From contig JBITNC010000001.1 in NCBI GenBank assembly GCA_050084985.1, positions 169,384,001 to 169,448,000 of the forward strand: 64,000 nt of DNA. Direction: 5' to 3'. Positions 9,488-35,850 of the stretch are shown in pieces (positions within the stretch are counted from its first letter, which is position 1; each line of letters begins with the position of its first letter). Under the pieces are notes generated by a model. That model was not told where the DNA came from. It saw nothing but the letters and a program-made list of their open reading frames with translations, and searched no databases. This DNA is from Nageia nagi. Its lineage: Eukaryota > Plantae > Pinophyta. The position numbers and the translations under genes were made by a program.

Positions 9488-9844
9488 ATGTCAGATTCCA
9501 CGGTGAATTTCAGTGTGCTCTGTGAAATGTTCGAGGCCATATCTCGAAGCAAGAAGCCGGCAATGAAGCGTAAACATGTCAGAACATTTCTTGAGCATGT
9601 TTACAGAAGACGGCAAGGCAGAGGAAAAGAAAGTGAGTATTTTAGCGCAATCAGGCTGATGTTGCCGCAGCTGGACAGAGAAAGGGGAACGTATAAGCTA
9701 AAGGAGGCTCACCTCGCCAAATGTTTGACGGAAGCCTTGGGGCTCTCCAAAGACTCCAAGGACGCGCACAAGCTCTTGAATTGGCGCAAAGGCGGCGTTA
9801 AAGTCGGTGCCAATGCAGGGGATTTCCCCATGGTTGCAACGGAG
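9488..9844 (+). CDS. LIG4: DNA ligase IV, exon 1 (DNA-binding domain)
   Basis: MSDSTVNFSVLC...IRLMLPQLDRERGTYKLKE...LLNWRKGG...AGDFPMVATE matches the plant LIG4 N-terminus. 119 codons, then donor GAG|gtatgg. Confidence 0.95.
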
Positions 9845-13100: not shown

Positions 13101-13667
13101 TAAATATTATATACATTATTGGAATTTGTTTTGCATCTTACTAGGAAAATGTGGTTGATTATGACAAGAGCTGTTAGCTAGTAAATAATATTTGTATTAT
13201 TGGAAATTTATTATGCAACTTGCCATAGGCAATTGATTGATTAGGGCCACTATATGCACCATTAGTTGGTTGGATTGGTATGTTTCCAACAATCAATTTG
13301 AATTCTTGGAAACAAGTCAAGGTTTATTCAATTACTTCTACATCTAGGTTTTGTGGTCTAACAAGGATAGGAAAAAAATGATGAATTAGCAACTGCTTTA
13401 AGCTTTATGGTGTGTATATGTAAATTGGGGTAGAATGTTGTCCAAGAACAAATACAAATATTTAAAAACAAATTATGGTTAGATTATTAATGTATTTGCC
13501 CATTATTTCCACTTTAAAAAAAATATGTAAACAATTCGTAGCGGTACCTTATATCCTCATAATAATTTGTTGAAGAATAAACAAAGGCACATTCAAGCAT
13601 CCATGAAATATAGAGGCACTTCAAAACATAAAGCACAATAAGTGAGATCGAAAATTAATGGAAAACT

Positions 13668-13707
13668 TCAAAAATGCGTTTTGTGCTCTATGCATTCATC
13701 AATTTGA
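13668..13707 (-). ncRNA. Degenerate minimal type I hammerhead ribozyme motif
   Basis: Minus strand reads TCAAA-TTGATGA-ATGC-ATAGA-GCAC-AAAA-CGCATT-TTTGA. The CUGAUGA and GAAA cores each carry one transition, and stem I TCAAA/TTTGA pairs. Confidence 0.6.
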
Positions 13708-13959
13708 TTGATGACCAAAACATTATAGTCTCACCTGTTATAGAACATTTTCAAACTAGAGGGTGGCAAGTTGGATCGACCATTTGTGGTGAGAAAAATC
13801 TAGAAAAAAGATATGCACAAAAATGATAATGATTGTCAAGGAAAATGGTATAAAGTGCCAAAACAATAGAAAAAAGGCATGTAACCTTGAAATATGCACG
13901 AAAATGGCAGTGATTGTCACGATATACGAGCAATACAAATTCAACAAAAAGATGCAATT

Positions 13960-14400
13960 TTGAATAGGTGTTGGCCTGAAAGTATCAAGGACAAGAGTAG
14001 GTTAGGTAGCATCATGAACAACTGTTGAATCGATATAATTAACAAATGTGTGCCCACTCAATATCATCACAAGCATGCGTTGGCCCGGTGACATCACAAA
14101 TAGGGCACCTGGTAGCATCACAAACATATGTTGACCTAGTAGCATCACGAGCAGGTGTCGACTTGGTGACAACACAAATAGGTACTGACCGAATAGCATT
14201 GTGAATAGGTGCTAGCATGGTAGCATCACTCATAGGTGTCATCCTGGTAGCAACATGAACAAGTGTCAACTTGGTAGCATTCATGAACGATGCTGACTTG
14301 GTAAGTGTCGGCTTGATATCATACACGAAAAGGTGTTAAATCAATATCTTTCACGAATAGGTGCTGACTTGGTAGCATTTATAAATAGTACCGACTTGAT
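13960..14400 (-). repeat. Degenerate 27-bp tandem array in the PLE 3' region
   Basis: Recurring GGTAGCATCA(T/C)GAA(C/T)AGGTGTCGACTT-like unit; 9-aa periodicity in ORF 14039-14326. Confidence 0.85.
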
Positions 14401-14818
14401 TGCAAGGAAGGCTATTGTTGAACCGAATGTAGAGAAACATGTGGTCGACCTAGTTGCTGAAGAGGAGGTAGTTGTCAACTTGGTTTTGCAAAATCTTTAC
14501 TTCGACAAAGAAAGTTCTTAAAAGACTTACCACTTCTCCAACAAATAATACGATCAATGTGTGAGAGTTCTGAATCTTTGCACCACTTTTCATACAAGGG
14601 TCAAAGAACATTTCTACTAAGTTGAAGATCACATGCAAATTGGCAGTTGTTCAACTCCATTAATATTGGAGGAGTCTTTCGATGGGACCTTTTCTGTAAA
14701 GAGATCTTTTGAAAAATATTCTACAAAAGAGTAGGTCGATGTTGAAATTCAACCTATGCAAAGAGAGGAAATAAGAAATGGGATACAAAACCCTGTGCCC
14801 TTAATCTGTTGAAGAATT

Positions 14819-16232
14819 TGTAGTATTCTTAAAATATACTCAAGTGCAAATTAGCAAAATAATTATCAAATTATATCAAAATCTACCCTTAAGCATGCCA
14901 CGTTTGAACTAGGGCATCAAATTCATGCAAAAATAAGCCAGGAATGCCAACGACTCACTTCCGAGGCATTAGTGATACCAAATTGCCCAACGTTATGCAC
15001 TAGGGCCTTATACACAATGCCAAACTAGCTCAAGAATGCCAACGAATCACATATGCAAGCATAAACATACATAGTAGTCCAACATTGCACGCGTAGAAGC
15101 ATACACATCAAATATGGAGACAAATACTGAGTTCCAAGTATGCCATGACAATATTATTGATGAGCAAATGAGTACAATACTGAATTTGCCCAAATGGCTC
15201 AACATTTGCTGCCAAGGAGCCAACTAGGGCATACATTGAGCTGAGATAGACTCTGAAACTGAGGTAGAACAACCACCTTCTACTAGATCTATGGATGCCT
15301 CACTGAAGGGCTCCCTCACAAACTAGCTCCTAATGAAGAGAACAGGTGTGGTTCCGGAATGCCATCGAATGGATATAAAGATGAAGACCGCTTGTGGACA
15401 CCTCAGGGTAGTGCAACCTCACTCGCACGAACAACTCTTCAACCGTGTAAAACAGAAGGTGACCTATGCCTCTTACGCTCTCCTTGTACACTGTGCTCAA
15501 GGTTGCTTGACATCGCCAAGACTTTGGTAGCTTTAAAGAGAAGGGTTTCAATATCGAATTCAGTCTATCTCTGGATTGAGGCTCCTTAGCCTTATGTAGC
15601 TCATCGTTGGATCTGGATCTCACCTAGGAGTCTTTCCCAATCTCTCTAATCTCAATGTTGGCGTCCTAGAGGCCCAAGATATCCAACATGGGTGCGTAGG
15701 GGTCAAGCATGCTGAACGTGGATACCTAGGGGTCATTAATGCCAATGTGGGGATCCAAGGTGCCACGAATGCCTATGTGGGTGTCCAAGGTGCCACGCAT
15801 GCCAACGTGGGTGTCCAAGGTGCCATGCATGCCAACGTCGGAGTCCAAGGTGCCACGTGGGTCTAGGAGTCGTGTGGGTGCAAGGGGGTCATCATGGGCC
15901 AATGTGGGGGTCTAGGAGTCTCCTCATGTGTACAAGTACTTCCAAATCCAACGTTGGGCAAATAGGTGCTTATCCATGTTCTTGGTGCTAAACAGGCCTT
16001 GGGATTCCCACAATCATCTTTGGGATCTCCAAGTATATTAAAAGATAAATAAAATAACATATCCTAGCTTGGGAAGAAAACGTCCCTCATGGGGCTCACA
16101 AGTGGGTCCAATGGACCATTATAATTCTATCCCAAGGAATTAACAATAATTATGTGAGAAAGTAAATATTTACAAAAAGGGACTCCATAGGATTTCAAAA
16201 TTAATTAATTTTTACAAAAAGGGAATGTTACA
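14819..16232. mobile_element. Solo LTR, 1414 bp, with 5-bp TSD GAATT
   Basis: TGTAGT...GTTACA termini. GAATT at 14814-14818 and 16233-16237. Excision restores the PLE sequence. Confidence 0.92.
15650..15860. repeat. 30-bp tandem array inside the solo LTR
   Basis: Unit ATGCCAACGTGGGTGTCCAAGGTGCCACGC, about 7 copies, decaying leftwards. Confidence 0.9.
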
Positions 16233-19200
16233 GAATTCATGCTTCATCAATATGAAACCCTCTTCTTGACCTTCTCTAATCAGATTCCTCTTTATCTCAC
16301 TGACTATGGAGGTCTTTTTCTGATGAGGAGGATGAAAGGTGTTGGTATCTTTTTCTTTTCTCACCCAAAACATGCACAAGACTTGGAGGAAACAACGTTA
16401 CTTGTTTCTGCCTGAAAAGATTGGTGACCCCAAGCGCTCACATGGAATATGGTCTAGGGCATAGTGGATAGAGATGCATGTTGTTAACTGTATACAAGGG
16501 AAATACACACCGTCGGAGTTCTTTTCCACAACGAAGAAAGACTGCAAATGTGAATGAAAGCAAAGAAAGGTCACAAATATAGGGACAAACAGAGGGACAA
16601 GTGCATAGGAATATAAACAAAGATGAGCTTATGAAGACAAGTGTCTTGGTAGGTCATCTTCGGATTCATTAAGGAAAGTATACTCACTATCAAGCCAGGC
16701 AACAAATAGCAATATGTGTTCAAATCACTACCAGACGAGAGCACGAAGCTATAGGGTCTTGGTGGAAGACTCAGTGAAAAAAGGGTAAATGGAGTGAGGG
16801 TGTGAGTACAAAGACCTAACCAAATGGTATAGAGACAAGCTATGAGCCTTAGAATACATTCACTTGTGTGCAAACCATGCAATGACCAGCTTAAACTACT
16901 TTGTCAAATATTCAATAAGGAACTTTAAGAGGAAAACTTATTAAAACCAAATAACATGCATGATCCCACAAATGATAATCTCCATAACATTTGCTTTATA
17001 ATCTTACTCTTGAAAGAAATCCATTCATGATGATATTCAATGACATAATATGCATAGAACCCCTTATGCAATGGGATTTTGAAATCTTTCGAATGCAAAT
17101 TCACAAATATGCAAAACCTTTACAGATAGGTAATAGTACGCAAAAATGGCACATATGTTATGTTCTTCAGCTTTACAAATGTAAAAGTCCTCAATTTTTA
17201 CAAATGCAAAACCTTACATATGCAACAATCCAAACATACGTAAAAATCTTGTTACACGCATCCAAAATGTAGAAATCCTCAATTATAATAGGTGCAATAG
17301 TCTCAAAATTTCTCACATATGCAAAGATTCTATTACGTGCATCCAAATGCAAAAGTCCCAAATGCCAAAATCGCCTTCTACATGGCCTTGATGGGGTATA
17401 AATAGGCCATCAGAAGTGTTGCCCTAAAGGCATCAAATCCAATATGGTGTGCACTTCACATAAAATGATGCAAGTGGCATTTAAAAATTGATAAAATATA
17501 AATGCCACTACCAAAATGCATTTAATCAGATATGCAATAAATGTCTGACATCTAAATCGGTAGGAGCAAAATCTCATCCTTGCATCGATCAGAGTCATAA
17601 ATGAGTCTGATAGATTTGATCTGGTGGGAGCAAAACCTCATCCCTACACCAATCAAATCAAGTAAATAAAGTCTGACAAATAACAACCATAGTCAAATAT
17701 GCATTTAACAAGAGAAAGATTATCGTAGACAGAATCTGCAAATGGATCGGATCTAGGCTAGATCTGATATGGTACCGACGGAGTTCCACTCGTCATTGGT
17801 GAGATCGTACGACTTGATGGTCTCCTCCAAGAACACCACGATTTTTCTTACACCCTTGGAGATCATGCCAACGATGTTATCGTTCTATCAAAAATAGTCC
17901 CTAATCTGTCTGGATGTAGCTTGCATGTGGTATCTCCAAATGACCATTTGTCTCTTATGGACGATGGGATGCCCTGCCTTCAGCAAACTGAGGTCATCGA
18001 TGTCTAGATGCTCCTGGATCAAATTTTGTGCCCCTGCCAATACCGCCTCCTTCCTCACGCTGTTATCCTCCCCCTGGAACCTGAACTGGTAGACATGCGC
18101 TCATTTGCTCCTCGACCTCCTTCCTCAAGGGGATTTTGAGTTTCAAGACTGCATTGCACTTCTCAAGTGCATGCTTCAGCTAGTTGTGATGATATGTAAA
18201 CTCATGGCAGTAGACCAGTTTCTTGGGCTTGTTAGCGAAAACTTGCTGCAGGTGGGAGACGTTGGGGACGTAGCTGTCCAACTTGTCAAGGTGTGTTGTG
18301 ATTTGGGACTTAAGTCCCGAATTTCAATACCTTCGAGGAGGCTGTAAATTTGAGAAGACAACTTCTCAAAGGTCTCCATCATCTCCGTTTTCAACTGCTC
18401 CATCAACTCCCATCCTTTATGGAACGAGGTTTGCTTCCTCAGATCAAGAGGGGTGGTATTGATGTTTTGGAATTCCTTAATGATTTTCTTGTTGGCCATG
18501 AGCTCCTTCTTCAGCCTCTTCACCTCCTTTTTGGCTTCATAGTTCTCTTGTTCCATGATTGTAGCGTTCTGAGTTACTATGTGCTTGCGGGCTATCAATC
18601 CCAACTTTACAAGCATCTTAAACGTCTCAATCACATAGTCTTCTGCCCTCTGAGGATGCTTCTCCTTGGAATAGCAATGACTGATGGAGATCTTCTGGGA
18701 GGTAGAAACAAATGTATCAACTCTTCTAATCTTCTTACCAACGAAGAGCTCTTCTTCATCCTCAAAACGTAGATCCTAATCTATCTCCTCATCATGAGCC
18801 GTACTTGTACTGAGGGCTCTAAGGCAGACATCTAGGTCAAGGTTTGGATGTTCGCTTGCTGGTTGGGGAGGAAGCCTCTTCACCAACAATCGGCCTTTGC
18901 TAACCTTATTGACCTCTTTAGTCAGAGTAGTCTGAACAAGGGCAATTTCCTTACCTTGGTGTTCGTCCTGCTTTCTCTTCTTTTTTTGCTCCTCGGTCTC
19001 CACTTCGTCTTTTTCATCTCCTCCATCAACACCAATGGATATGCCTTTCTTTCGTGGTTGAGGGGATCTCTCATGGTTGGTCCTCTTCACAGAGGGTTTC
19101 TGGAAGACAAAGGCGACCTCTTTCTATGCGTGGCAGGAGAGGGCTTGGAGGCACCCACCTCTTTGGGACACTTTACTCCAACAATCTGGACCTCATCATC

Positions 19201-19939
19201 ATAGGTCCCGACGTCCACAATCTCATCATCATCTGGGAGAGTTTCAATCTTCGTTTCATTAGGTGCGGAAGCACCTACAGTTACATCATCTTGCTTAGGG
19301 TACTGCTCATCAACAACAACATCATCATCATCTTCTTCTTCTTCCTCACCACGACTCTCATCATCACTTTCTTGGCTCTTTGTCTCTTCTTTGGTGCCTT
19401 CTACTGTACGACCGGGTTCCTCATCAGTCTTTTCATCAGAAGAAGTGGAATGCTTGGAAGAACTGGAACTTGGTTGCAGTTGGGTAACCTTTTGTCCACA
19501 TCCAGGAGGACGAATGGGTCTGGAAGGAATCTCTTATGTGGGTGAATCATCGGCACAGGCCTCCTCCAGCATGCTTAAGGGGATAGTGCGATAGCCAGCA
19601 TTTCTCAAATCGGCCATCACTACACTGCGTTTGCTAGGTCCTGTTGTGCCTTACACAACTCGCCCCTTAAATTTTGCAATTTCAGGGACCCTTGACAATT
19701 TGAAGCCTTGAATGTCAAGTCAAAACCATTCCCCCTCATCTCTAGTAAATTTGAAATTAAGCCCATAACCTTGATATTGAAGTGCAATCGCCTATCCAGC
19801 CCTAGCCATCTCAAACCATATAGTAAAACCCTCGTAAATCGACTAAGTCTGGCCTAGTGTAGATTAGGTCTAGGTGGTATACAGAAGTCCAAGTCAAGAT
19901 TCAAGCCGAAATGAACGGACTCAGGCTTCTCCCAGGCTT

Positions 19940-20900
19940 GGCGCATGCTCCAGGAAGACAAGATTGTGTCTTTTTGGGATGTGCACCTAGCCTGGAAGGA
20001 AGCCTGGCTTCGAAATTAAGTCCCAAAATGCAAACTGGGCCACTCCTTGACCCAACACATGCCATGAAAAGACAAAATCTTGTCTTTTTGGGACATGTGC
20101 CAGGACAAGAAGGATCTTAGGACAAATCAAGCCTGGAAAAGGACAAGTTAGTGCTTGAGAAGGCTGGTGCGGGCCTCAAAAAGACAAAATCTTGTCTTTT
20201 TGGAGCATGCGCCCAAGCTCGAAGGTTGCTTGGGAAGATTTGGAGCCCAGAAAGAAGAAATACACTCACCTAAGGGGCTTGCGCATGCCTCGAAAAGACA
20301 CAATCTTGTCTTTTTGGAGCATGCGCCTAGCCTAGGAAGCCCCCCAGATGGGATGAAATGGAGAATTTGGCTAAGGCACGGAGTTTTGAAGCGTGGAACA
20401 CAATCTAGCATGGCTAGAGGGATTGGCGCATGCCTCCAAAAGACAAAAACAAGACTTTTTGGAGCATGCGCGCTTGGGAAAGCACCAGGGCAGAGCAAGT
20501 ATGGGAAAATGACTAAGTCCAAGGATCAGGAGGCCAAAACAAAGCAAATCTGACCATTTTCAACCTAGCGCATGCCACAGGAAGACAAGATTGTGAATTT
20601 TGGGAGTATGCGCCTAGATTGGGGAAGCTGAAGAATTTGGAGGGAGTTTCAAAAAGACAAGATCCTGTCTTTTGAAACCATGCGCCAGGTTTGGGAGGGA
20701 CCCTGGGTCAAGTTAGGAGGTGAAAATGAGCAAGTCGAACCCCAAAGAATTAAGCACCAAGCGAAATCAGGCTCAGGACGGTGCTCTAGGGTCAAGTTGG
20801 ATGAGCAGGAACACTAGGAAGGCCAATGTTGGGAATGCAGCCACCCCAGGGGTTGGCGCATGCCTCAAAAAGACAAAACCTTGTCTTTTGGGAGCATGTG
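19940..20900. repeat. Dispersed array of about 8 palindromes of ~45 bp in the LTR 5' region
   Basis: Consensus GCGCATGCCTC-AAAAGACAA-AATC-TTGTCTTTT-TGGAGCATGCGC near 19941, 20057, 20169, 20281, 20427, 20568, 20650 and 20857. Confidence 0.92.
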
Positions 20901-21056
20901 GTAGGCCAAAAGAACCTCTAAAATCCTGACAATTGGTCCCGGATGGTCAGGAATAGGGTTTCAAAAGGGCACACATCTCGAGGTCAGCCACTTCAATGGT
21001 TGAGATGTCTTCCTCCAAAACCTAGCTGACTAGGGTTTTCAAAATGCCCACATCAG

Positions 21057-21066
21057 CTATAAATAT
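21057..21066 (+). promoter_or_regulatory. TATA box of the long LTR
   Basis: CTATAAATAT lies between the palindrome array and the ATG at 21251. An equivalent TATAAAAAGG is on the minus strand at ~29270 in the host element. Confidence 0.6.
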
Positions 21067-21250
21067 CAACTTGGGGATCTCATTTCCCCAAATTCAAATC
21101 GCACTCCTCTTTTACACTTGCTTGGGAGGCTTGGGAGGCTTGCGCAAGAGATATAGGAGATTAGGAGGAAGACGTGGGGGTTGTAGGCTTTTCCCAAAAA
21201 AAAAAAGCAACACATCACCCTGGAAGATCCCCGTCATTTGTCAGGGCATC

Positions 21251-24200
21251 ATGACTAGTTCCAAAAGCAATTCAGCCAAGGATTATGCACGAGATCTGGA
21301 ATACATCAAGCAAGAATGCCTCATCACCATATGTGAGAGACAAGAACCCTTGCCCCAGGGGGCTAAATTCTCCAAAAACGGGTTGGCCACTATTGGGGAC
21401 ACAGACTGGCAGAAGGTGGATCCGATGCAGATGAGGGAGAAGATCAAGAACAAACCCATCGGTGAGTTGAAACTAGACATTGTCTTCTTCTTCGAGCTCT
21501 TGACTTGTACATTCATCCCATTCACAGCTCCGTTCCCAGAGTTGTGTTTGGAAGTTGGCCAGCATTGGAAGATGGGTGAGAGAGTGCTCCGAGACATCAA
21601 GGGCAACGTCATGATGGACTTCAGCCCTGAAGGCATTAAGAAGGCATTCCAGTGGACGGTGGAAGGCAACTTTGAATACACAGAAGAGGAGTCGTTGGCA
21701 TGCTATCGGGACACCAACAGGGCAGCCGAAGCAATCAAGAGTTGGATGTTCGAGGAGCACCATGGTTTGAAGGGTAATGCACTTATCAATGCCCCTTGCT
21801 CCCACTTCTGCTCTTCTATTGAATTGGTGATCCTCATGTTTTCAAGAGTTCTTGGGAAGGAGTGTTAGAATTTATAATGAAATATTGTGAATATCTAAAC
21901 TCCTTGTAAATTCAATTAATCACTTAAAGGATATGTAGATACCTTAAGGGATTAATTGAATTCTTTATTATGTGTGGACTTTGACCTTACCATGGGGTTA
22001 GTTGGTAGGTTAAAGTTAGGTCATACATTTATTGTAACCCTAACCTTACCCTTGGGTTAAAGGGAGGTTAGGGAGGTGCTCTCAAGCTATAAATAGAAGG
22101 CCTCTCCTCTTGTAACATAACTAAGTTTTTGGAGTAAGATTACTCTACTAGTTTGTGTAGGAGAGGAAGAGAATTGTAGTAAGAGGTGCATAGATTGAGA
22201 ATTGAGAACTAGTTGTGGATGTACTCCCAAGGAGGAAGGAATCACATTATATTTGTGTTATCTTGTGTGAATGGTGTTATTAGTTTGTAGATGTATGATT
22301 GAGTTTCCTATAGTCTTGGACCTTGAGGATTAGAGTAGGTCTAATTCCTTCAAGGAGGATGCATCCAAGCTCCGAAAGGAGTTCTTTGGCTTCATTGTGG
22401 AGATAGCTCGGGGAAAGAAGATCAAGTGGAGCAAAGTGTTAAGTGACAGTATCATGGACCAATTGTCATCATTAGGAACCACACACGAGTTCTACCTCAA
22501 CTCCTACCTAGTATAACTATTACTGCATGGCCAACAGAGGCCCACAACTTGAGGAGAGGCGGACTTGATCACAAAGGGAACATACGCAGTGTGGAATTGC
22601 TATCCTAAATGGAAGATTGAGAGAAGATGGGAAGACTTCATGATGAGGAGTGATGGATGGGAGTACGAAGTTTACAAGGAGCTTAAGGGAGAGATTACTA
22701 TTGCTAGGATCTCCAACGCAGCCCAGGATGCGTTGAGAAGACATGGAGACTTCTTCACCCACCACCAACACTACTCTTACATCCGTCTCTATGGGTCGGC
22801 CGTGGAGCCTTATCAACTGCCTTGGTACGTAAGCAATCAGATGTTTCTGATGGAGATGACGAGGTAGTTAGTCTACTTGCATGAACATGTTTAGCAAAAG
22901 AAGTTGGCCACTTCCGATCTACCGATTATAGTTGGGGAGTATCAGTGTAGAGCTTGGGCGGATGTGACTTCCATGATGGAGGAGTTGGCGAAGTACAACT
23001 TCCCGAAGATACCGATCGCCAATCATTATGACCCTCAACATTGGATTCACGATTTTTACATGAAGGAGAGGAAGAGAGCTTACGAGCATAGACCACTTAG
23101 AGATGAAGAGCCATTCTGGAACATCAATGCCAAAGTGTAAGTGAAGAAGATCTACGCCAAGATGCAAGAAGAGGCTCAGAGGCAACAACTGGAGGTAGAG
23201 GCTTCAATTCACAAGAAGTTGTCTCAATCTCGGGGCAAGAAACCACATGGGTCTACTTCCAGGGTCACTCAGTTTACACCAATGATTGGAGAACTTGTTG
23301 GACAATATGCCTCCATGCATGGGAAGGCCCAAGTTGAGTAGGTAGCACATTAGGTTAGGGAGATGGTTGATGAACATGACGTGAGGGAGTTGGAGCATTT
23401 GGCCATCGATAAGGTGGTGAGATGTGTGAGGAACCAAAGATCGGATCCGACTCCGCCCCAGAGGCCAGCAAGGATAGCAGTAACGCATCCATCCTCAACC
23501 ATTCCATGATCAAGATCAGAATCCTCAGGACCCCAATAGGAAGACCATGGCACCCCTCATGGAGAACAAACAGATAGACAGGAAAATGGTGACTAACAAA
23601 GCATGCTTGAGGAAGGGGAATATGAAAGTATTCCGCAAGACGAGTCAGAGGAAGGGTCAGGAGATGAACACGAAGCCAGTAACGTTCCAGAAAGAGATAT
23701 ACAAGATGCATAGGGTGAGGAAGAACCATCAGTGGAGATCTTGAACGACACCCATAATCATGCCACCTCAGAGCCATCAACCTCCCAAAGGAAGGATAAA
23801 GACCTCGCTCCGTAGTCAATGCTGAGGATAACCCAATTGAAGAGAGGATCCCAGTCCAAGTTGTCGGTAACACCAGGGGAAACTGCAGGGCAAGGTGAGA
23901 GGCCTTTGAAGAAGATTTGGAACAATGCAGACGTTTCAGAAGTAGTTGTTGAGACCCATCAGCCTCCATCCAATGTTGAGTGGGGAGTAGACATAGATGA
24001 GTGTCTTGATGTTTTCAACATGGACGTGGGAGAAGAATTCAGACCTAGAGGGATAGGAGATCAGGTTGGAGAGAGTTCCACTCGCTTGGGGAAGAGTCAG
24101 ACCTACTTACATATGACAAAAAATGCAATGTGCATCAAGACCATAGTGGCAGACAAGGACAACCCCTAGGGTCTTGGAGACTCGAGGCAAATAAATTAGA

Positions 24201-25053
24201 TCATCAACACGAGCCCAATTGGTGTGACTGGCAGAAAGCATGCTATTATTTCGAATACTAAGGCAATAGCCAAGGATGGGTTGTTGAAGGAAAAAGAGAT
24301 AAAGAGCTTGACGAAGGAGTTGGTAGCCCAGAGGAGATTGACTCATGAGTTAGAGTCCACCAAAGAACCCACAAATGAACTCAAGAAGGTAAGACCTCTC
24401 AAAGAAGGAATGATTGTTGTGAAACAAGAGGTGATAGAAGAGGCCTTAGCAGTATTGAGACGATTCATCGATACCCTCCACCAAATCTCGTTCGCAGAGG
24501 AGCAACTGAGGTATATTGTCATCGAAAGGGTCAGGCTACTCAGGATCTTAGACTCCTAGAAACCCATGATACTAAGATACGAGGCAATGCATACTCAGAG
24601 ACTCGAGGACAGTTTTGTGAGGGCTATTGGTTCTATTTGGGTGTAAATAGCCAGGTACATACCCGTTTCCAGGAGACGAATCAAGGGGTGACCGTATTTA
24701 ATGACAAGGTCCATGCATGTATGGAACGGATGGACTTTCAGGTACAATTCTTGGAGGAAGACGCCACCATTCGAGAAGCAGATGAGGTAGTGGCTGAGGT
24801 CAAAAACCTTCTCCTTAGCCTAATGATGACAGAAGATGTGAACTCCTACCAAACAGGGAGTCACTTGAGGAATATGCTGCGGGCCCAAACATGGAAGGAC
24901 GAAATGCAAAGAATGGTGAATGAGGCCAAGCAGAGCATGACTTCCATTAGACCAAAGTTCTCAGAGATGTTGAGTGGGGTGGAGCACATGACAGAGTTCC
25001 TGGTAGTTGGGTTCGAAGACCGAGTTGTGGGCTTGGGCCCACCATTAGCTTAG
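21251..25053 (+). pseudogene. LTR-embedded accessory ORF, ~1100 codons after removing the solo LTR; homologue of the ORF at 17753-29120
   Basis: MTSSKSNS...PFPELCLEV...MDFSPEGIKKAFQW...MFSRVLGKE|DASKLRKEFFGFIVEIARGKKIKWSKVLSDSIMDQL...FYLNSYLV...LPIIVGEYQCRAW...HYDPQH. The frame is restored by excising 21863-22357; scattered stops remain. Confidence 0.8.
21863..22352 (+). mobile_element. Solo LTR, 490 bp, copia-type, TSD AGGAG
   Basis: TGTTAG...CCTTCA termini, AGGAG on both sides, CTATAAATAG inside. Same family as 3888-4388. Confidence 0.95.
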
Positions 25054-26164
25054 TCATTTTTATTTTCAGTTGTCTTAGTTTCGCATCTTCCAGCTGGACA
25101 TTCTAATGTTATTTTATTCCCAAACTCATGAAGGATGAGGATTTGCTCCCACGAGTTTGGAAGAGAATTTGTAATGCCATGTGGCAATTTTTCATTTGAC
25201 CGCCTATTATTTCGTGAATTAGGGTTAGGGCAACATTGTTGGTTGCTCCTAACATTATTTAATACCCCATTTTGACTCATTTAGGGGGATTGGACATTTA
25301 GCATCTTAATACAACTTTGCTGTGCCAAATTGTTCTTAAGTGTTGAAAGTGGTGTATGTGGATGTTATTGTGATGATATACTTGTTCATGTTGCAATAGT
25401 GGATGTGAATGAATGCTAGATAGTGTTATATGTTTTCCTTCTGTCATTACTTGCTGTTAGCTCAATTTACTTGGTGCATTTCATAAACTTCACTGGAGTG
25501 GATGAGAGGTGGTTTGCATATCTTGAGAAGTAATTGACTGATATCTTGTGGGTGGCATTTCACTATTGGTAGTATTGGTTTGATGATCTTGGGATGTGTC
25601 ATTGATGTTATTCGCCGCGGGGACTTCACCCGAGCCCTTTAGTCCCACCTTGGTCCTGTCTTATCTCACCGCCTTAACTTCACGCTTTGTTCACCCAGCT
25701 ATTCGTGTTGTTGGTTGGTGGACTAGATAGTGGGTGCTTGGAACCTGCATTGAACCCAAGTGAGTCGACTTCCAAGAGTCTTTATCAAGCCCATGAATTA
25801 GCGTGTCTACTCTTGCATCCCGTTCCCACACTCTTTCCACCATTTTATCTTTCTTTATTTTCTTCTATTTTTCACTTTCTTTTTGTGACTTTCGCACCCA
25901 ATTTCCCTTTCAACACTCAAGAAGCGGCCTTGGTGAAGCCCAAACACAGAATAATTCGAGTCCCTTGAATCCACACATGATAGTCATGTTGGTGGCAGCT
26001 TTAAACATTTCAACCGTCCCCTGACTTGTTCTTGCATAACCCACGAAGCCAAACCTTTGGGGTAAACAGTCCCCATAGCGGGAGGGAGTAACGGCCCTCC
26101 ACCTGAGATGTTGGCGCTTTTCCCGCTACTTTAGGGTAGGAGAGAAAAACCCCCCAACATTAAT

Positions 26165-26181
26165 TGGTGCTAGAAGGAGGG
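26165..26181 (+). other. Primer-binding site (Tat-type TGGTGCTAGAAGGAGGG)
   Basis: Begins 5 nt after the LTR end CAACA (26159) and starts with TGG. Resembles the TGGCGCTAGAAGGAGG PBS seen in Tat-lineage elements. Confidence 0.75.
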
Positions 26182-29100
26182 CCCACACCTTCCAATCCTG
26201 ATTGTCTTCAAGATTGGGTAGCCACAAACGGATAGGAGTACCATCAACAAGCTAGCAATGGGGTCTTCAAGCTTGGCGTTGCGGAGATAGAGAAGGTGGA
26301 TCAGCAGGAATAGACCCAAGAACCTTCAAGGCGAGATGTTACAAGCGCAACATTTACATTTTTATTTATTGCAATTTTATTTAAAATTTGGATTCCAAAG
26401 ACTTATTAAATTTTGTACAGCCTTGTGATGGATGAGGATTTGCTCCCACAAGTGCTGGAATAAATCTTGTAATGCCATGTGGCACTTTATTATTGAGCTG
26501 CGTTTATTTTTCTTGAAACTTGTGATTAGGGTTAGGGCAACACTGCTGGTTGCTCCTAAACTATTTATACCCCATTTTGATTCATTTGTAAAGGGGGGAT
26601 TGACACTTAAACAATTGAAAGGAACTTTTGCTTGCTAGACCAAAAATTCTTTATGTTGTTAAATGTGGTGTATGTTTGTGTAATCATGATGAAATGCTTC
26701 TCATTTTGCCATGCCAAATTCAAATGAATGATTGACAATGTTGTCTAGTTTGTTCTATTGCTGCTTTGTGTTAATTTACATCACTTGGTGCATCCTGTAA
26801 ATTCCGTGTGGAGTGGACAAGAGAGTGCTTGTATATCTTATGAAGTGGTTGATTAGCACATTGTTGGTGATATTTTGTCATTTGCAATCTTAGGCTTGGA
26901 TACTTCAAGATGTCTTGTGGATGTCGCTCATAGTAAGAACTTCACCCGAATTGTTGAGTGTTACCTTCACCCATCCTACTCCATCCTTGCCACAGCTTGA
27001 CGCTCCTTCCATTAGACCATTTGTGTCGTTGGCTAGCGGAATGGATTGAGGGTGCGTGGAACCTATGCCGAGACCCAACAAGTCAACTTTTGAGGACCTT
27101 ATCCTGAGCCCGTGACTGCATGCCTATAGTTGCATCCTACTACCCACAAGTCTTTCCACCATCTTTTCTTTCTTTATTTTCTTTTATTTTACACTTTCTT
27201 TTCGCGGTTTCCACACCCTATTTCCCTTTCAGCATTTTCTAGAAACAACTCCATCTAGCCACGAAGACAATCTGAGTCCTTGAATCCACACATGATATTC
27301 ATGTTGGTGGTAGCTTTAAACATCTCAGCATTCCTTGAGTTATCTTCACCAAGTCGTGAAGTTAATCTTTGGGGTAACTAGTCCCCATAGCAGGAGGGAG
27401 TAACATCCTTTCATCTGAGGTGTTGGCATTTTTCTCATTGCTCCAAGGTAGGAAAGAAAAACACCCCAACAGGTCCTGGGGCGTGCTCCCTTGGAGCTCC
27501 TTGTCTCTTCCCAGTAGGAAGCAAGGGCGTATTGCCTTGTGGAGGTGCAGCACTGGCAAGAGGAGGAGACATCTTGATCTTGAGTGGGACTTGCTTAGAT
27601 CTTGCTTTGATAGTGTGTGGTCTCTAAGGTGGTCTTTTTGCCTAGAGGGGGGTCTTCTTCTTACTCAAAAGAGCATCTATTCGTGCAATTTCCTCCTCAC
27701 TTTGCACATTTCGATACTTCTCCACATTCCCTAAAGATTTATGCTGAAGAGTGATCGGTTTCTGGAATGCGGTGTTGTAGAAATGAGCAATTACACCTTT
27801 AGGATCATAATTTCTAGCTACTGCCTCCTTGAAGAAGACGTCCTGTTGCAGCTCCTTCTTCATATTGCTGGCCTCAACCCACGTTTGGCAAACGTAACTT
27901 GCGATAGAGATGGGCAAGTTGATGGTTGCATTTTTCTTTCTCCATACTCGTTCCTTCAAAAACAACAATTGTTTAGCAAACTTCATGAGAATGAGCCTAT
28001 CACTGGTGTATTTGGGGAGGAGTAGGGGTTGCTTTTCGGAACCATAGACTTTGATAAATGTATGATCAGTAGACTACAGATAGAAATCTGCATGTGCACT
28101 GTTGGCTTGAATTGTAGCATCAAAAATCCTCTTCACGATTGATTCCCCTTTGATGTCCTTGTAGATGGAGTACTTCCATCAATCATTCCTTTCATAGGAA
28201 TGCTAAAACTTGTTGTGATACCACCACTTCGGGTAAACCCGCCACATAGGAATGCCATTCTGACCCAAGTATCTCTCATTCGTAAGCTCTCTGAATCTGA
28301 GCGTGCCATGCAACAATATATACACAAGATAGAAGTTCATATAGAACCTCTTCAAGGAACCAAAGTAAGCCAGTTGGTGGCATAGGGCATCGCTGATCAC
28401 CCTACTCCATTTGATAGCTCTCCTCGAGTTGATTAATGCAATGAATCCTGTGAACTTCTTCTTGTACTTAGAGTCATTCTCCTGACCCTTGACTCTTGAC
28501 AACAAAGTGATCAACTTGGCCACTGTAGATAGGAATTCCTCCCTACGGGCGCTGACCAGTATTTGGCTCTAGATGTTCTGATAATCTTCATATAGCCATG
28601 ATCTAATGTAGTCCTTAGGTCGGGCAGTGGAATTATGGAACTCTTCTGAATTTGCCAATGTGTAGTCATCCCCATATCTCTTTCAGCCAATGGCTGCTTC
28701 AATTCCTTTAGGGGAGAAGTCCATAAGCACATTCCCCTCTGTGTCTAGGAGGACTCTCTTGTCATATACATCTGTTGGCTACCTCGTAGCACAAGTTAGG
28801 AAATTGAACTGCAAAAGGCATCATGGTGGCATTGAATAATCCACAAGTGTGGATGAGTTCATCTGACAGGTCCGCCTTGTTGATGGAGGCAGTGGAGGCT
28901 ATGGTCTAGATGGGGTCAAGATTTCCCCAGTCTGTCTCCAACGAAGGCATATCTCCCCTTGGATTTGGCTTCAGGGAGCTCTAGTTTTTCTCTTTCATGA
29001 AACTTTATCCAACTCTCTTTCAAGAGCCTTGTCATCTGATCCTTGGTAACATGTCTTTCGAAAAGTTGCCCCTTGAACTTTCTTGGCCTTGAGTGGAGGC

Positions 29101-29389
29101 GTCCTCACTTTTGAAGTCATATTGAATTCTGAAGAAAAAGGATTGGAAATGGCTGGAGTGCCCTCAGAAAAGCTCAAGGATCAATCTGGACACCTTGGAG
29201 GATGCAACAAAAAAGGTCAAATGTATAGGCCTGGGTTGCAGGACATCCAATAAATTGAATAAGGCTTCCCTTTTTATACTCAATGCATGGAGGGTGGATG
29301 TATGGTGGGATGCATTCCTGCCACTTGTCTCTTTCTCTTCTCAATTCCTGGCGTCTCACACTTAGTCAATTTCAGCTTGTAACCCTAGG

Positions 29390-30615
29390 GTGCACGGTTT
29401 GAGATGAGTGCTTTTTCACTGTTTGGAAAACATGCGATTGGGTCTAGGGTCACTTAGTCAAATTTTAGAGCACAATTCATCACTTCACACCTGGGCGCAT
29501 GGATTTGGATGAGTGGAAAAACATGTACTGCAAAACATGTGCCTCAGTTTCTAGGGCTCAAATGAAATGCCTTAGTCAAAAATGACTAACTGATTGCACA
29601 AACAAACCCTAACTCCTTATTCCTCGGCACACCGATTTGGATGAGTGGTTAAGCATGTCTCTGATATGGTGCAACTGGGGTCTTAGTACAAATTTGAAAT
29701 GAAGTAATGAAAATGACTAAGGGGCGACTCAGTATTTATAGTCTTCTCGGTTGCCACGTGTCACCCCCTGGTTGGCTGAAATTGAGTTCAAATGGTGGAG
29801 CTAGGATGGAGGGTGCATGGATTGGGACATGTGGAAAAGCACGCAGTGCTCCAGACTTAACCTTCCAAACTGATTGACTGAGGTTGACCTTCCTTTTATA
29901 GCCTTCTTGGATGGGATAGGTGTCGCCTTGTGATTGGTGCAAGAGGTGGCCAAATGCATGTAGCCACACTTGTCAATGTCTGGGCCCAACACTTAGCCAA
30001 ATTTTGTTGCTTGAAATTGGGTACAGTGTATAGGGCACATGCAAAAGCATGTCCCTCAAAACATGTGCCTAGGCTATTTTAGGGATTTTGTTCAAAAATT
30101 GGTTAAGTATAGAACCTCTTATCCTTGGTTGCACCGTTTTGGGGACTTGCAAAAGCTTGTCCCTTAAAACAGGTGACCAACTCTTTCTCTTTGCAAGCTG
30201 AACGACTTCAAAAAAATATTCTAAGTATGGGATGTCCACCTCCTTGTTCACATCGATTTGGGGACATACAAAAGCATGCCCTTCAAAACATGCGATTGGA
30301 CCTTTTTCATGTTTTTTACGAAAAATATTCTAAGTATTGGAAAACTCACAGCCTTGGTCGCACCGCTTTGAGGACATGCCAAAAGCATGTCTCTCAAAAC
30401 ATGCGACTAGAGGAAAAACATGATTTTCCTTTGAGAACTTGACCATAATGATTTCAAATGCAAATGCAATGAAAGGGAATGAAGTTTGCACGTTGAGGTA
30501 ACCTGAAAATGCAACTCTAATGGCCAAAAATGTAGGTATGAGTACGAAAAATGTACCATGAGGTTGGATGCACCGTTAGGGGACATGCAAAAGCATGTCC
30601 TTCAGAACATGCGCC
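29390..30615. repeat. Dispersed array of about 8 palindromes of ~45 bp in the 5' region of the minus-strand long LTR
   Basis: Consensus GCACCGTTTTGGGGACATGC-AAAA-GCATGTCCCTCAAAACATGCG near 30026, 30130, 30249, 30360 and 30570. More diverged copies near 29392, 29495 and 29627. Confidence 0.85.
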
Positions 30616-30945
30616 TAAGGAAAAATGCAATTTCTTGACTAGACTTGATCATGCATGTACAAATTTAATATGTTTCCTCTTAGCTAAACCATGATGGATG
30701 CATTTCCTTAAACAAAATTTCTTTATGCATCTATGTTTGATTTTTCGAGGGTCCTCAAAATGCAAAATTTTGGGGGTGTTTATGCAGGCCCAACAATAGC
30801 TAAAAACAAAAAATAAGAACAAAATCTAAACATAGAACGAATACTATGACACAACAAGATAATGCAATGCATGTAATGCAGGCACGACACAGACAAAATG
30901 CAGACACGACAACTATGTACAAGACAATGCAAAAAGGTCCCTTCA

Positions 30946-32578
30946 AGCTTGAAAATAATGCTTGAGGTGTTTACCGTTAATAGGCAATGGTAATACCTCG
31001 CCAGTGTGCTGCTTGAGCTTGAAGGAGTTCGGGTCCGCAAGAAACGGTCCTAATCACAATTTGTCGAACTTAGCATGCTTCCCCTTATCTTCATGTGCCT
31101 TATCCTACATCAAGATGAGATCGTCTTATTCAAAATTTGTTACTCGAGTAGTTATGTCAAACCATCGTTTAGTGATTTGTTGATTACAGATCATGCTTTG
31201 AAGAGCTTGTTCTCTTTTCTCTTCCAGCTGGAGCAGGTTTGCCAGCCTTGCCTCAACCAAATTGTTAGTTCCAACGTAATCCCTCATGAATTGGAGGGTT
31301 GCAATCTTCAAATGCGTAGGAACACGGGTTCAGTGTTGTAGACAAGTTGATATGAGCTGGTACTAAGAGACTTCTTTAGCTTGATCCTTTCAGACCATAA
31401 AGCATATTTCAATTTACTGTGCCATTCTCTTGGGTTGTCTGCCAGAAGCTTCTTGGTCACCGTTACCAGATTTTTGTTGGTCGACTCAGCTACTTTATTG
31501 CCTTGTGGATAGTAATTTGAGGAGTAACTTATGCTGATGCCATAGTCATACGCCCATTCTCTCAACTTCGTCGAGGTAAAACCAAGTCCATTATCACACA
31601 CTAGACTCTAGGGAACGCCAAACCTTGTGATAATAAATTCTTCCAGGAAGTCTATGACACCCTCAGAAGTGGCATTTCTGCATGCTTTGGCTCTGGTCCA
31701 CCTAGTGCAATAATCGGTGGCTGTCAGGATGAATCTGTGTCCATTGGAAGAATTGGGATGAATGACCCCAATAAAATCTAACCCCCATTTGGAAAAAGGT
31801 TTGGCTTCAGGCACAGGCTAAAGGGGCAGATTGGAATGCTTCTCTCTTCTAGCCGAAGTTTGGCAAACGTGACATTTCTCTATATAATTGTAGGCATCTT
31901 TGAAAATGGTTAGCCAGTAAAATCTAGCTCTCAAAATTTGATGGGCTAACATAGGGCCTCGGGCATGACCAGTTCCACCATCTTGGTCATGAAAGTGTTT
32001 CAGAACTTCTGCAATTTGGTTCTCTTCAAGGCATCTCAGGAAAATGCCTTCATAATTCTTGCGAAACAGCTTATTGACCTTTATCATGAACCTAGCAGAT
32101 TTGTATCTCAGAGCTCTCCTCTAGGCTTGATTATAATGTTGGGGATATGAGCTAGAAGTAAGGTATATGGTGATGTCCTCATACGAGGAACCTTTTGTAG
32201 GTGTGTATTGGCACACCATAATATCAGCATCTCTCGCCGCCTCTTCATATTTTGAATCAACAACATTTTTGCAGAAGGCACGTGTTTGAGAAATTCCTTG
32301 GCCAAGTACAATGGTCATCAGTTGAATGGTGAGATCATACTCTTGGAGAGCAGTTACCCAATTTCCTCGCTATTCATCTAGCTCATTTTGGACAAGCAAA
32401 TTCTTCACAGCTGCATCAGGCACGATAGCAATGACTTTTGACGGCTCGGACCAAGGCATATGCTTGCTTATCTATTGGAGGGTATCTCAAAGCAACATCC
32501 TTTAGTGGGGCACCCATAATTGCAATGGGCTTCTCATGATTCTCCTTTTCGATCCTCTGAGTGAGAACTCCGACTAAG
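30946..32578 (-). pseudogene. Ty3/gypsy pol remnant: RNase H plus integrase (zinc finger, core, GPF/Y region)
   Basis: GVLTQ..EKPIA..KQAYALVRA; WVTALQEYDL..GQG; FYWLTIFKDA..CHVCQ; PFSKWGLDFIG..TATDYCTRW; YYPQGNKVAESTNK; DKGKHAKF..LGPF..INGKHLKHYF. Confidence 0.95.
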
Positions 32579-32579
32579 G

Positions 32580-33705
32580 ATCGAAGAACCAACGAAGTTT
32601 GAGAAGCCTGAAAAAAGTGATATATTCAATATGAATATCATCTAGAGACATAGGAGGGGGATAGGGATGAATTTCAATCCCAACCCAAGAAGTGCTTTTT
32701 CTGCTATTGAGAGAGATTTTTGAGAAGTTATAACGACATTTGTGATCAAGTCATCCACAATGCTAATTGTATGTTTGCTAAAGCAAAGCAAACAAAGATT
32801 GGAGGGACTGAGGATGACACTCCAATGACATAATTTTGGTTTTCATCATTGTGAGGGAGGCCTTGAGGTTGTTTTCGACTGGATCTAACTGCTTGGTTGC
32901 AGATCTTACACAATTTTGATTCGTTTGAGAACCAAATCTTTGGGAAGTTTTGCCAAAGGCTAGATGCAATTGCTATTGTACATGTTGTATGAATTCCTTT
33001 TTTCGATCTTGCCAACAAATTCTACTTTGTGATCAATTGCATGACCCATTTTTTGGTAGGTTTCGTTGGTTTTGTCTTCCAAGGTGATTATGAGGTTTTT
33101 GTTGTTGACCTAGTTGTATAGGTGGTTGCTGTCAACTCGATTGCATAGGTTGTTGTTGCTAGTTTGATTTCTGTCCTTCGCAACTTCTACTTCTATTTCT
33201 TTGATTATAAGGCGAAGGATGGCTTGAAGCATTAGTGGTGAGGTTGGCAACAATACTTTAAAGATCTTTAATTTAAAAAAAGAATGGTGCTGTTTCTCTT
33301 TTAACAAGAGCAACTACAAAAGTATTGGCTTCTTCCATGACAACATCTTTGAATTCTTTTTCAGTAACAAAGTGTGAGTTAGTAGCTTCTTTTTGAACTT
33401 GTTAATCTACCTAAAACTCCTTTTGAAGTGCATTTTTCTATACTTCAAAATTTTGATGGATATCAATTCCCTAATGATGGGAGATGGTAGGATCGTTGGA
33501 TTGTAGTTGTTTGAAAATATTTTCCATTTGCACATGGAACTCACTTTTTGTAGAGTTCTTATCCTTCAAAAGGGTTTTTAGATACCTTTCTTTTGCAATA
33601 TGGTAAATGTTTGCGCAAGATTTTTGATATTCAAGGGCGGCCTTTCAAAATTTGAGTCCATATGTTCGTGGATTGTAGGCTTTTTGATTGCTAATGATAT
33701 TGTTT
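32580..33705 (-). mobile_element. Penelope-like element, long arm, N-terminal ORF region
   Basis: Minus strand near 32580-32760 reads NVVITSQKSLSIAEKALLGLGLKFIPIP..DDIHIEYITFFRLLKLRWFF (one frameshift). This fits the PLE pre-RT motif VxNLSxxxLxxxExxLLxxGLxFxPxP...FxRxLxLxxFF. Confidence 0.75.
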
Positions 33706-34789
33706 CTATGTAGTTTTCTCTTTAAATCTGATGTTGAAAGCCTCTACCTAAGAATTCCAACAAAAGCCGATTTGATTACTCTTCAATAGTTCATCATTGG
33801 TAAATTCTGCCTAGGTTTGACATTTTTTATTTTGGATTTAGCAAGATTAGTCCTCATTAGGCATTTTTTCGAATTTAATAGAAAAATTTATAGGCAAAAT
33901 TGAGGTACTGCAATGGATAGTAATTTTGTAGTTGTTTATGCCTATCGTTTTCTTTGCTACCTAGAATTACAAGTTTTTAGTCAATTCCCTTACATTTTCG
34001 AGAATTTATGCCTTTTTAAATGTTATATTGATGATGCCTTTGCAGTTTGGAAAGGTTTGAAAGAAAGCCTTAAACGTTTTCTTGATTTCTACAACTCCTT
34101 TCACTCCAGTATCCATATTATTGCCTCCATTTTTGATTCTAAGGTTAAGATTCTTAACATAGTTGTGTTCAAATCTTCAACTATGCCTAATATTGGTTTT
34201 TTTGAATACTAGATTATACCAAAACACATTAATTTTTATCAATACATTCCTTTTTGTTCCTTTCACCCTCCTCATCATAGAAAAGGCTTCATAGTCAGTA
34301 AGCTAAAGAGGATACTAGTTAGAGAAGGAGAAGAAGAAGGTTTCAAATTGATGAAGCATAAATTCTTCTATAGGTTGAGGGCATGGGTTATCTATCCCTT
34401 TTTTTATTTACTCTCTTTGTGTAGGTTGAATTTCAACATCAACCTATTCTTTTGTAGAAGATTTTGCAAAAAAATTCTTTAAGGCAAAGGTCCCATCGGA
34501 AGGCTCCTCCAATACTAATGAAGCTGAGCAATTGCCAATTGGCACGTAATCTTCAACTTAGTAGAAATGTTCTTCGACCCCTGTATGAGAAATGGTGTAA
34601 AGATCCGAAAGTCTCACACATTGGTCACGGCACTATCTGTGAGACTTAAGGACTTTATTTGTTGAAGTAAAGTTTATGCAAAACCAAGTCGATAACTACC
34701 TTCTCTTCAGCAACGTGGTCGACCACATATTTCTCTATAGTTGGATTGACAACAACTTCCTCGCAACTGGGTTGACACCTATTCGTAAA

Positions 34790-35205
34790 TTTCCACAGGC
34801 CAACACTTGTTCGTAAATGCCAATGGGCCAACCCTTGGTCAACACCTTTTCGTGTATGATACTGGGCCAACATCTGCTTGTAGAAACTACCAGGTCAAAT
34901 AGCATTCGTGAATGCTACTAGACCGACATCACCCATGAATGCTACCATGCCAACACTTGTTCATGTTGCTACCAGGTCGACACTTGTTCATGTTGCTACT
35001 AGGTTGACACTTGTTAGTGATGCTTCTGGATCGGCACATGTTCATGATGCTACCAAGCCAACACATGTTGATGATGCTACTGGGCTGATACCTGCTCACG
35101 ATGATACCGGGTGGCACATGTTTGTTAATTCTATTGGGTCAACACTTTTTTCCGATGATCGGATTGACGCTTGTTCGTGATACTACCAAGTTGACACCTA
35201 TTCAA
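34790..35205 (+). repeat. Degenerate 27-bp tandem array in the PLE 3' region
   Basis: Unit CATG(A/T)TGCTACCAGGTCGACACTTGTT, roughly 14-15 copies. Confidence 0.88.
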
Positions 35206-35474
35206 AATTGCATCTTTTTTTCAGAATTTGTAGTGGCCGTTTACATTGACAATTATTTCCATTTTTGTGCATATCTCAAGGTTATGAGCCTTTTTTCTAT
35301 TTTTTGGGCACTTTATACCGTTTTCCTTGACAATCATTGCCATTTTTATGCATATCTCAAAGAAACGATCCATTTTTTCTAAATTTGTCTCACTACAAAT
35401 GGTTGGCGAAAGTTTGCACCCTTTGGTTTGAGAATGCTATATAACAAGTGAGATTGTAATGTTTTGGTCATCAA

Positions 35475-35514
35475 CCAAACTAATGAGTGCACAAAGCACA
35501 TAATGGGTTGTCAG
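35475..35514 (+). ncRNA. Degenerate minimal type I hammerhead ribozyme motif
   Basis: CCAAA-CTAATGA-GTGC-ACAAA-GCAC-ATAA-TGGGTT-GTCAG. Stem II GTGC/GCAC is intact and the cores are mutated. Same position as the motif at 13668-13707. Confidence 0.55.
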
Positions 35515-35850
35515 AGTGTCCCATTCATTTTCGGTCTCACTTATTGTTATTCATGTTTTGAAGTGCATTTCTATTTCATGGATGCTTGATTGTGCTATTA
35601 TTTCTTCTTCGACAAATTATTCTGAGGATATAAGGTACTGCTACGAATTGTCTACTTATTTTTAAAAATTGTTATTGGCAATACCTGGAGAAAAAGTATT
35701 AGTAATATCCTGATAACTAATTGGAAAAATATTGGAATTTTTAGAAATAGATAAAAAAATGTAAAAAGTAGAAAATTAAATTTAACTAGATTTCATATGT
35801 CCTGTTTTTTGGGTCATTTTTTTAGTATTTTCAGTACGATGAATATTTTG

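Follow-up and report, generated by a model that had tools for sequence, protein, structure and literature searches.

The window analysed here, a 64,000-nucleotide stretch of the conifer Nageia nagi (assembly GCA_050084985.1, contig JBITNC010000001.1, positions 169,384,001 to 169,448,000 of the forward strand), holds two related units, A and B, which share one layout: a TGTTG start, a hairpin or palindrome array, a TATA box, an open reading frame (ORF) of ~1,100-1,180 codons, a tail of 1.1-1.4 kb and a CAACA end. A sequence-only reading had described this layout and taken both units for giant long terminal repeats (LTRs) that carry a gene of their own; the layout itself was confirmed, and the text below concerns the gene and its proposed place in the LTR. 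TGTTG and CAACA are inverted repeats of one another, and both units accordingly run from TG to CA. The features of the two units and of the pol fragment beside B are as follows.

19642..26159, plus strand: unit A, putative 5' LTR, TGTTG...CAACA; 6,518 bp long, or 6,023 bp once a nested insertion is taken out
19930..20900, plus strand: hairpin palindrome array of ~50-bp units; six regex matches, three folded (z -3.3 to -6.3)
21058..21063, plus strand: sole sense TATA box of unit A, 193 bp upstream of the ATG
21251..21862, plus strand: first 204 codons of ORF A, free of stops
22358..25053, plus strand: remainder of ORF A, made up of a conserved core, an acidic and P-S-T-rich middle and a C-terminal region; one frameshift, 15 stops
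25054..26159, plus strand: tail of A, a T-rich 3' untranslated region with a CAACA end; motifs as in B
25283-89, plus strand: AGGGGGA, resembling a polypurine tract (PPT), in the tail of A
26165..26181, plus strand: TGGTGCTAGAAGGAGGG, resembling a primer-binding site (PBS)
26351..27471, plus strand: second tail, without start, array or ORF; 72% identical to the tail of A and 82% to that of L001, a further copy described below
26590-99, plus strand: PPT-like AAAGGGGGGA in the second tail
19637..19641, plus strand: left copy of the target-site duplication (TSD) GGTCC; B-family contigs cover the empty site
27472..27476, plus strand: right copy of GGTCC
21863..22352, strand not assigned: nested solo LTR of ~490 bp from an unrelated high-copy family; AGGAG duplication at 21858-62 and 22353-57
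27477..30795, minus strand: first half of unit B, with TGTTG start at 30795, its own repeat array and the ORF from the ATG at 29120
29900, 29740 and 29278, minus strand: TATA boxes of unit B, the last 158 bp upstream of the ATG
16340..19641, minus strand: second half of unit B, with the ORF to the stop at 17753, a 1.4-kb tail and the CAACA end at 16340
30943..32580, minus strand: broken pol fragment (RNase H end and integrase), its stop 147 bp before the TG of B

Ends of the nested units

The plus-strand element (19642-27471) sits inside the ORF of the minus-strand unit B (30795 to 16340) and consists of unit A, the PBS-like site, ~190 bp and the second tail. GGTCC is duplicated at its borders, the reading frame of B matches on either side of this insertion site, and public contigs of the B family read straight through the unoccupied site. 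A TSD does adjoin 19642, as had been claimed, but its right copy lies at 27472-76, and the duplication thus brackets 19642-27471 and not unit A alone (19642-26159).

We examined the left end of unit A in 187 public contigs from four runs aligned on 19540-19935, reading loose ends among those listed. At least 11 contigs, from three runs and three samples, broke off at exactly 19642 (five in X1, three in X3 and three in X5), and single contigs broke off at 19641 and at 19640. When the flank before 19642 was read out as a majority call over unlike flanks, column agreement was 0.55-0.61; simulated unrelated window sequence gave means of 0.51 with five sequences and 0.58 with three. Taken with the TSD and with the inverted repeat formed by TGTTG and CAACA, flanks that agree as unrelated sequence does identify 19642 as an integration end, as had been proposed. 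At the right end, the CAACA at 26159 is followed by TTAAT and then by the PBS-like site, which starts with TGG 6 bp past 26159, in the expected place directly after a 5' LTR; a putative PBS is present as predicted, and its primer may be tRNA-Asn. One search for such a tRNA gave no match and another a single match, to a non-tRNA sequence. An integration terminus with a TSD of 4-6 bp at the left end was found for A, and not for B alone.

The ORF in A, B and other copies

Both units contain the long ORF attributed to them (3,308 nt in A, 3,533 nt in B), but neither is intact: ORF A, interrupted by an insertion of 495 bp including one AGGAG copy, carries 15 in-frame stops within 22358-24622 and shifts frame near 24610, and ORF B has stops and several frameshifts. 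The tails measure 1,106 bp in A and 1,413 bp in B, and the net length of unit B is 6,621 bp. Over their first 55 bp, A and B reach an alignment score of 42, compared with at most 14 among 863 TGTT-started controls from the window, and the reported similarity of the two starts is thereby upheld. By tblastn the ORFs are homologous from residue ~50 through the core, at 30-37% identity (58% DNA identity in the best block); the homology had been said to begin at 'MTS', which it does not, and in the C-terminal part it amounts to one weak patch. Three tail motifs (GATGAG..TTTGCTCC, TTAGGGCAACA and TATTTATACCCC) are common to A, B, the second tail and L001, and the rest of the window has none of them; both units have hairpin or palindrome arrays, of unlike sequence. 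A and B would, on these comparisons, represent two far-diverged families sharing one layout, and two accidents would be hard to credit as its source.

An antisense motif, GGGGTATAAATA, lies ~200-350 bp past the ORF stop (25256-25268; 26562; 17404 on the minus strand; L001 2952) and is kept in both families alongside TTAGGGCAACA. Its possible roles are those of a polyadenylation element or of an antisense promoter directed at the ORF.

Of 67 pattern matches in a metagenome-contig scan for the ORF, one yielded a locus, L001. This independent contig runs colinear with 22352-26159 (71% identity over 3,850 columns), keeps a single frame across ~910 codons with six internal stops, and ends in CAACA, after which comes DNA without a PBS. 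As ORF, tail and CAACA precede a PBS in A and a flank in L001 and B, the ORF is found on 5'-type as well as on 3'- or solo-type ends. L001 stops short of the left end, and linkage of the start to the ORF was seen in A and B only. In viral contigs there were no matches for the pattern of LTR end plus PBS, and none of six pattern matches held the ORF; genome contigs gave none among 24 pattern matches, and none in a second scan. Four protein homologues (P0098, P0004, P0060 and P0023) sit on contigs of 5.2-6.7 kb, two of which are of near-LTR size. Contig depth was greater on ORF B than on the pol fragment, but depth gives no ranking of the parts and was set aside.

Core mismatches between A and L001 number 45, 41 and 129 at the first, second and third codon positions, the third being ~3 times either of the others. 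The ratio of non-synonymous to synonymous substitution rates (dN/dS), a check that the sequence-only reading had called for, is 0.07, 0.11, 0.14 and 0.07 in four blocks, with dS near saturation. This substitution pattern indicates that the ORF evolved under purifying selection and was once a real gene.

A phmmer search returned 93 representative homologues at E<=0.001, most of them fragments. Ten were looked up: one is a hypothetical protein of Taxus chinensis, one a bare 'hypothetical protein', and the others are unnamed. None of the homologues measured 855-2,440 aa, which argues weakly against fusion to a polyprotein. No Pfam family is common to more than one of 89 aligned homologues. A block of the form W..IS..I..QL....FYM.SYL resembles, by eye, Transposase_32 or PMD-type domains, and the same resemblance had been suggested before; it did not survive the Pfam test, in which PMD, DUF1985 and Transposase_32 were absent from the window pieces at E<=1, from 31 homologues at E<=0.05 and from 89 of 89 family members at E<=0.1. 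Two AlphaFold2 models with a mean predicted local distance difference test score (pLDDT) of 72 served for fold searches. Foldseek, likewise proposed earlier, gave zero matches at E<=0.001 in the PDB and viral libraries; VIA-align reached Z scores of 3.1 and 3.4 at best, with none at or above 5; PDB sequence profiles returned nothing below E 0.5; and Atlas held no usable match for two homologues. Missing fold matches are, for this protein, no proof of a new fold.

In the accessible text of PMC5735166, VANC of the VANDAL transposons is an element-encoded accessory protein found beside family-specific repeat arrays, and that of bioRxiv 2024.09.27.615353 describes PMD-A proteins as retrotransposon-encoded and PMD-C as resembling the DUF1985 of VANC. 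The units resemble these systems in having an accessory protein gene next to a family-specific repeat array, but VANC comes from DNA transposons, and the ORF protein has no sequence match to PMD, DUF1985 or Transposase_32. The VANC21 chain 9lnk_A matched the model (pLDDT 72) with a Z of 2.1 (root-mean-square deviation 5.1, 120 aligned, rank 41 among 50 matches listed), which is within noise.

A probable place for the gene within the LTR

We consider A and B to be, very probably, gene-bearing giant LTRs, counting together the forms in which the gene lies in R/U5 (the repeated and unique 5' regions) or in U3 (the unique 3' region). In the more specific form that we prefer, and think probable, they represent two diverged families, each by a decayed copy of a 6-6.6 kb LTR of gymnosperm TatII type with an accessory ORF between TGTTG and CAACA, in R/U5 under the LTR promoter. 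An array with a TATA box serves as U3 in other plant LTRs. If the hairpin array and TATA box are taken as the U3 promoter here, the ORF falls in R/U5 under the LTR's own promoter; unit A has no further sense TATA box. Termination in the tail would then let every LTR copy, even a solo one, give rise to an ORF mRNA, and genomic RNA would come from read-through out of a 5' LTR. By analogy with VANC, and with less confidence than in any other part of this reading, we tentatively suggest that the protein acts on the family-specific hairpin array, as a DNA-binding trans-activator or as an anti-silencing factor, though on balance this is doubtful. Of the original proposal of a ~6-kb LTR with an internal ORF, much has held: the end at 19642, a PBS after the tails (other copies, in run X4, have a PBS behind a tail of the second type, with the joint 27471-TTA-26162), the order ORF-tail-CAACA in L001 and the purifying selection. 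What it did not gain is an element with two LTRs and the ORF in both.

Several points weigh against our preferred reading. Neither the window, where both elements are truncated, nor the contig scans showed an element in which two full LTRs bear the ORF. The plus-strand element is not intact, and recombination has acted there: as its two tails are 72% identical and the second is 82% identical to that of L001, it is a recombinant of two subfamilies. In the flanks before 19642, which do not read as single sequences, no PPT could be made out; one deeper contig (X2, depth 12.8) shows a modestly purine-rich end. Unit B has no target duplication (its flanks are ATAGC and AAAGG) and no PPT before its TG, where the sequence is T-rich with four purines in the last 15 bases. 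In A, L001 and the second tail, though not in B, a PPT-like run with TG stands ~870 bp short of the end, and a third unit, C, has array and tail without the ORF.

Unit B had been called a 3' LTR. With neither PPT nor TSD, position, its TG lying 147 bp past the integrase stop, is all that this label is left with, and B may be a nested solo LTR or else a 3' LTR whose PPT is atypical or deleted. The same 147 bp without a PPT would suit ordinary elements whose LTRs are short (~0.9 kb) and which carry an extra ORF, in sense, after pol and ahead of the 3' LTR; B would then be normal internal sequence at the 3' side, and A would be a tandem or deletion chimera. Sense 3' extra ORFs are common, the A-type tails do carry a PPT-like motif, and the plus-strand element is a proven chimera. 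However, the start of B is homologous to that of A, and the start of A is a TSD-flanked end common to at least 11 other contigs, whereas internal sequence should not have varied flanks; we regard short LTRs as decidedly improbable.

The PPT-like run with TG, present in three of three A-type tails, can also be read within a giant LTR whose ORF lies in U3, like sag of mouse mammary tumour virus (MMTV). A 3' accessory cassette would have been taken in as plus-strand priming moved upstream, and genomic RNA would start from the old ~870-bp LTR at the tail end. Such an arrangement has the MMTV precedent and needs no 5-kb minus-strand strong-stop DNA. Yet the tail of A has no sense TATA box, and the motif is missing from the tail of B and may be a hairpin arm, as the run in the tail of L001 is one arm of a hairpin; we judge the U3 placement improbable.

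The remaining alternative concerns unit C.

38042..~39890, minus strand: unit C, lacking the ORF: an A-like hairpin array fused directly to a distal tail that ends in CAACA; its left end is uncertain

We rejected C as a third LTR start, its apparent TGTTG start being unlike the starts of A and B. With its array fused directly to the tail, C could stand for a normal, ORF-less LTR of ~1.9-2.4 kb, from which the ORF-bearing forms would be gene-capturing side branches spread as non-autonomous passengers. But the layout is common to two families at 30-37% protein identity, the ORF bears the mark of purifying selection, and C is without a TSD and without the proximal tail motifs common to A and B, as expected of a deletion product; we find this very improbable. 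In the last ~110 bp of the tails (26050-26160 and equivalents), C shares a conserved block, CCCCATAGCGGGAGGGAGTAAC, with A, L001 and the second tail; this block can form stacked hairpins, with a z of -1.6 that is not significant.

As for the lineage named in our preferred reading, the integrase beside B has its nearest relatives in Pinus taeda proteins and in polyproteins that carry an archaeal-type RNase H (aRH) before the reverse transcriptase (RT). All five whole-polyprotein relatives have aRH there, having been picked for carrying it, and the corresponding region, between protease and RT, is deleted in the window. No aRH lies between the RNase H (RH) and the integrase (INT) or after INT: RH runs into INT, and the end of INT is colinear with the relatives. 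In the accessible text of Neumann 2019 (PMC6317226), aRH before RT is the TatII layout, and Athila has no aRH and an Asn primer in 12%. The pol fragment beside B is thus likely of TatII-type Ty3/gypsy origin, with Athila as another possible source, and the TatII assignment is likewise drawn from this fragment adjoining B, and not from unit A's own family.

The surroundings are rich in other repeats. The nested solo LTR at 21863-22352 has very high contig depth, and other copies of it run on into a TGGTATCAGA-type PBS (loose end behind 22353). Inverted copies, 74-83% identical, lie at 13519-14819 and 16232-16339 (minus), 33300-35663 (plus) and 32600-33300 (minus); their translation resembles, by its motifs, a Penelope-like reverse transcriptase, and they have zero Pfam matches. 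Minus-strand pieces of this kind border the segment of pol and B on both sides, which suggests that the Tat element inserted into one. A 1.4-kb TG...CA unit at ~14819-16229, with GAATT at each side, is probably another solo LTR, and fragments of Ty1/copia integrase and RT from both strands occupy 45936-50277. The nearest named relatives of the window's retrotransposon proteins come from Pinus taeda, Taxus and Cryptomeria, which points to a gymnosperm host. Upstream of this repeat-rich DNA, a first exon at 9488-9844 (plus) encodes the N-terminal domain of a DNA ligase, probably ligase IV; the repeat nest may lie in an intron of this DNA-ligase gene.

Extra ORFs, known elements and the solo LTR

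According to the accessible text of Neumann 2019 (PMC6317226), TatII elements have sense extra ORFs upstream of the polyprotein in 23% and downstream in 26% (27 elements), reach 18.1 kb and use Asp or Asn primers; LTRs in that survey were limited to 6,000 bp. That of Ustyantsev 2015 (PMC4408406) reports no extra ORFs seen in lineage II. The elements described here resemble TatII in the integrase beside B, which is near aRH-before-RT polyproteins, in the 5-bp TSD and in the sense extra ORFs that TatII has on either side of pol, but no ORF is placed inside an LTR in the accessible text of either paper. ORFs inside both LTRs would reconcile the near-equal 5' and 3' rates of the one study with the absence in the other, and the rates of 23% and 26% are a hint that such families have been sampled before.

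Ogre elements, in the accessible text of PMC6431247, have LTRs of 1.9-6.5 kb and one or two extra ORFs, and are similar in both respects. They differ in that their extra ORFs are internal, aRH lies between RH and INT and the primer is Arg, whereas here the ORF is upstream of the PBS and there is no such aRH. The size of the LTRs is therefore not new; the gene inside them is the point of interest. Extra ORFs of plant retrotransposons are described as internal in the accessible text of PMC7264820 and PMC6317226, and only in the internal region by Vicient and Casacuberta 2020. Our literature search, which extended neither to Repbase, a place where such families may be recorded, nor to most subscription papers, found no large gene inside a plant LTR. 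Among the papers listed, the only one in which an LTR contains an ORF was on MMTV; its sag/naf ORF lies within the LTR under the LTR promoter (PMC9412291, accessible text), an arrangement predicted here as well. MMTV is a vertebrate retrovirus with sag in U3, the gene here would probably lie in R/U5, and no homology is implied. The LTR and ORF of MMTV are also far smaller than those of A and B.

A gene of 3.3-3.5 kb within the LTR would turn a solo LTR from an inert scar into a promoter and a gene, and would stretch the known limits of strong-stop synthesis or of U3 length. Such elements are old and abundant in their genomes, and a survey limited to 6,000-bp LTRs has a blind spot in which they cannot be called. 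For the unnamed gymnosperm protein family, the hairpin array provides a candidate target sequence right beside its gene. We consider it rather unlikely that, in gymnosperm TatII-type elements, the gene moved into the transcribed part of the LTR, with a ~5-kb strong-stop DNA, and that each solo LTR is a gene for a VANC-like anti-silencing protein binding its own promoter array; if this is true, recombination between LTRs would leave the trans-activator behind instead of removing it.

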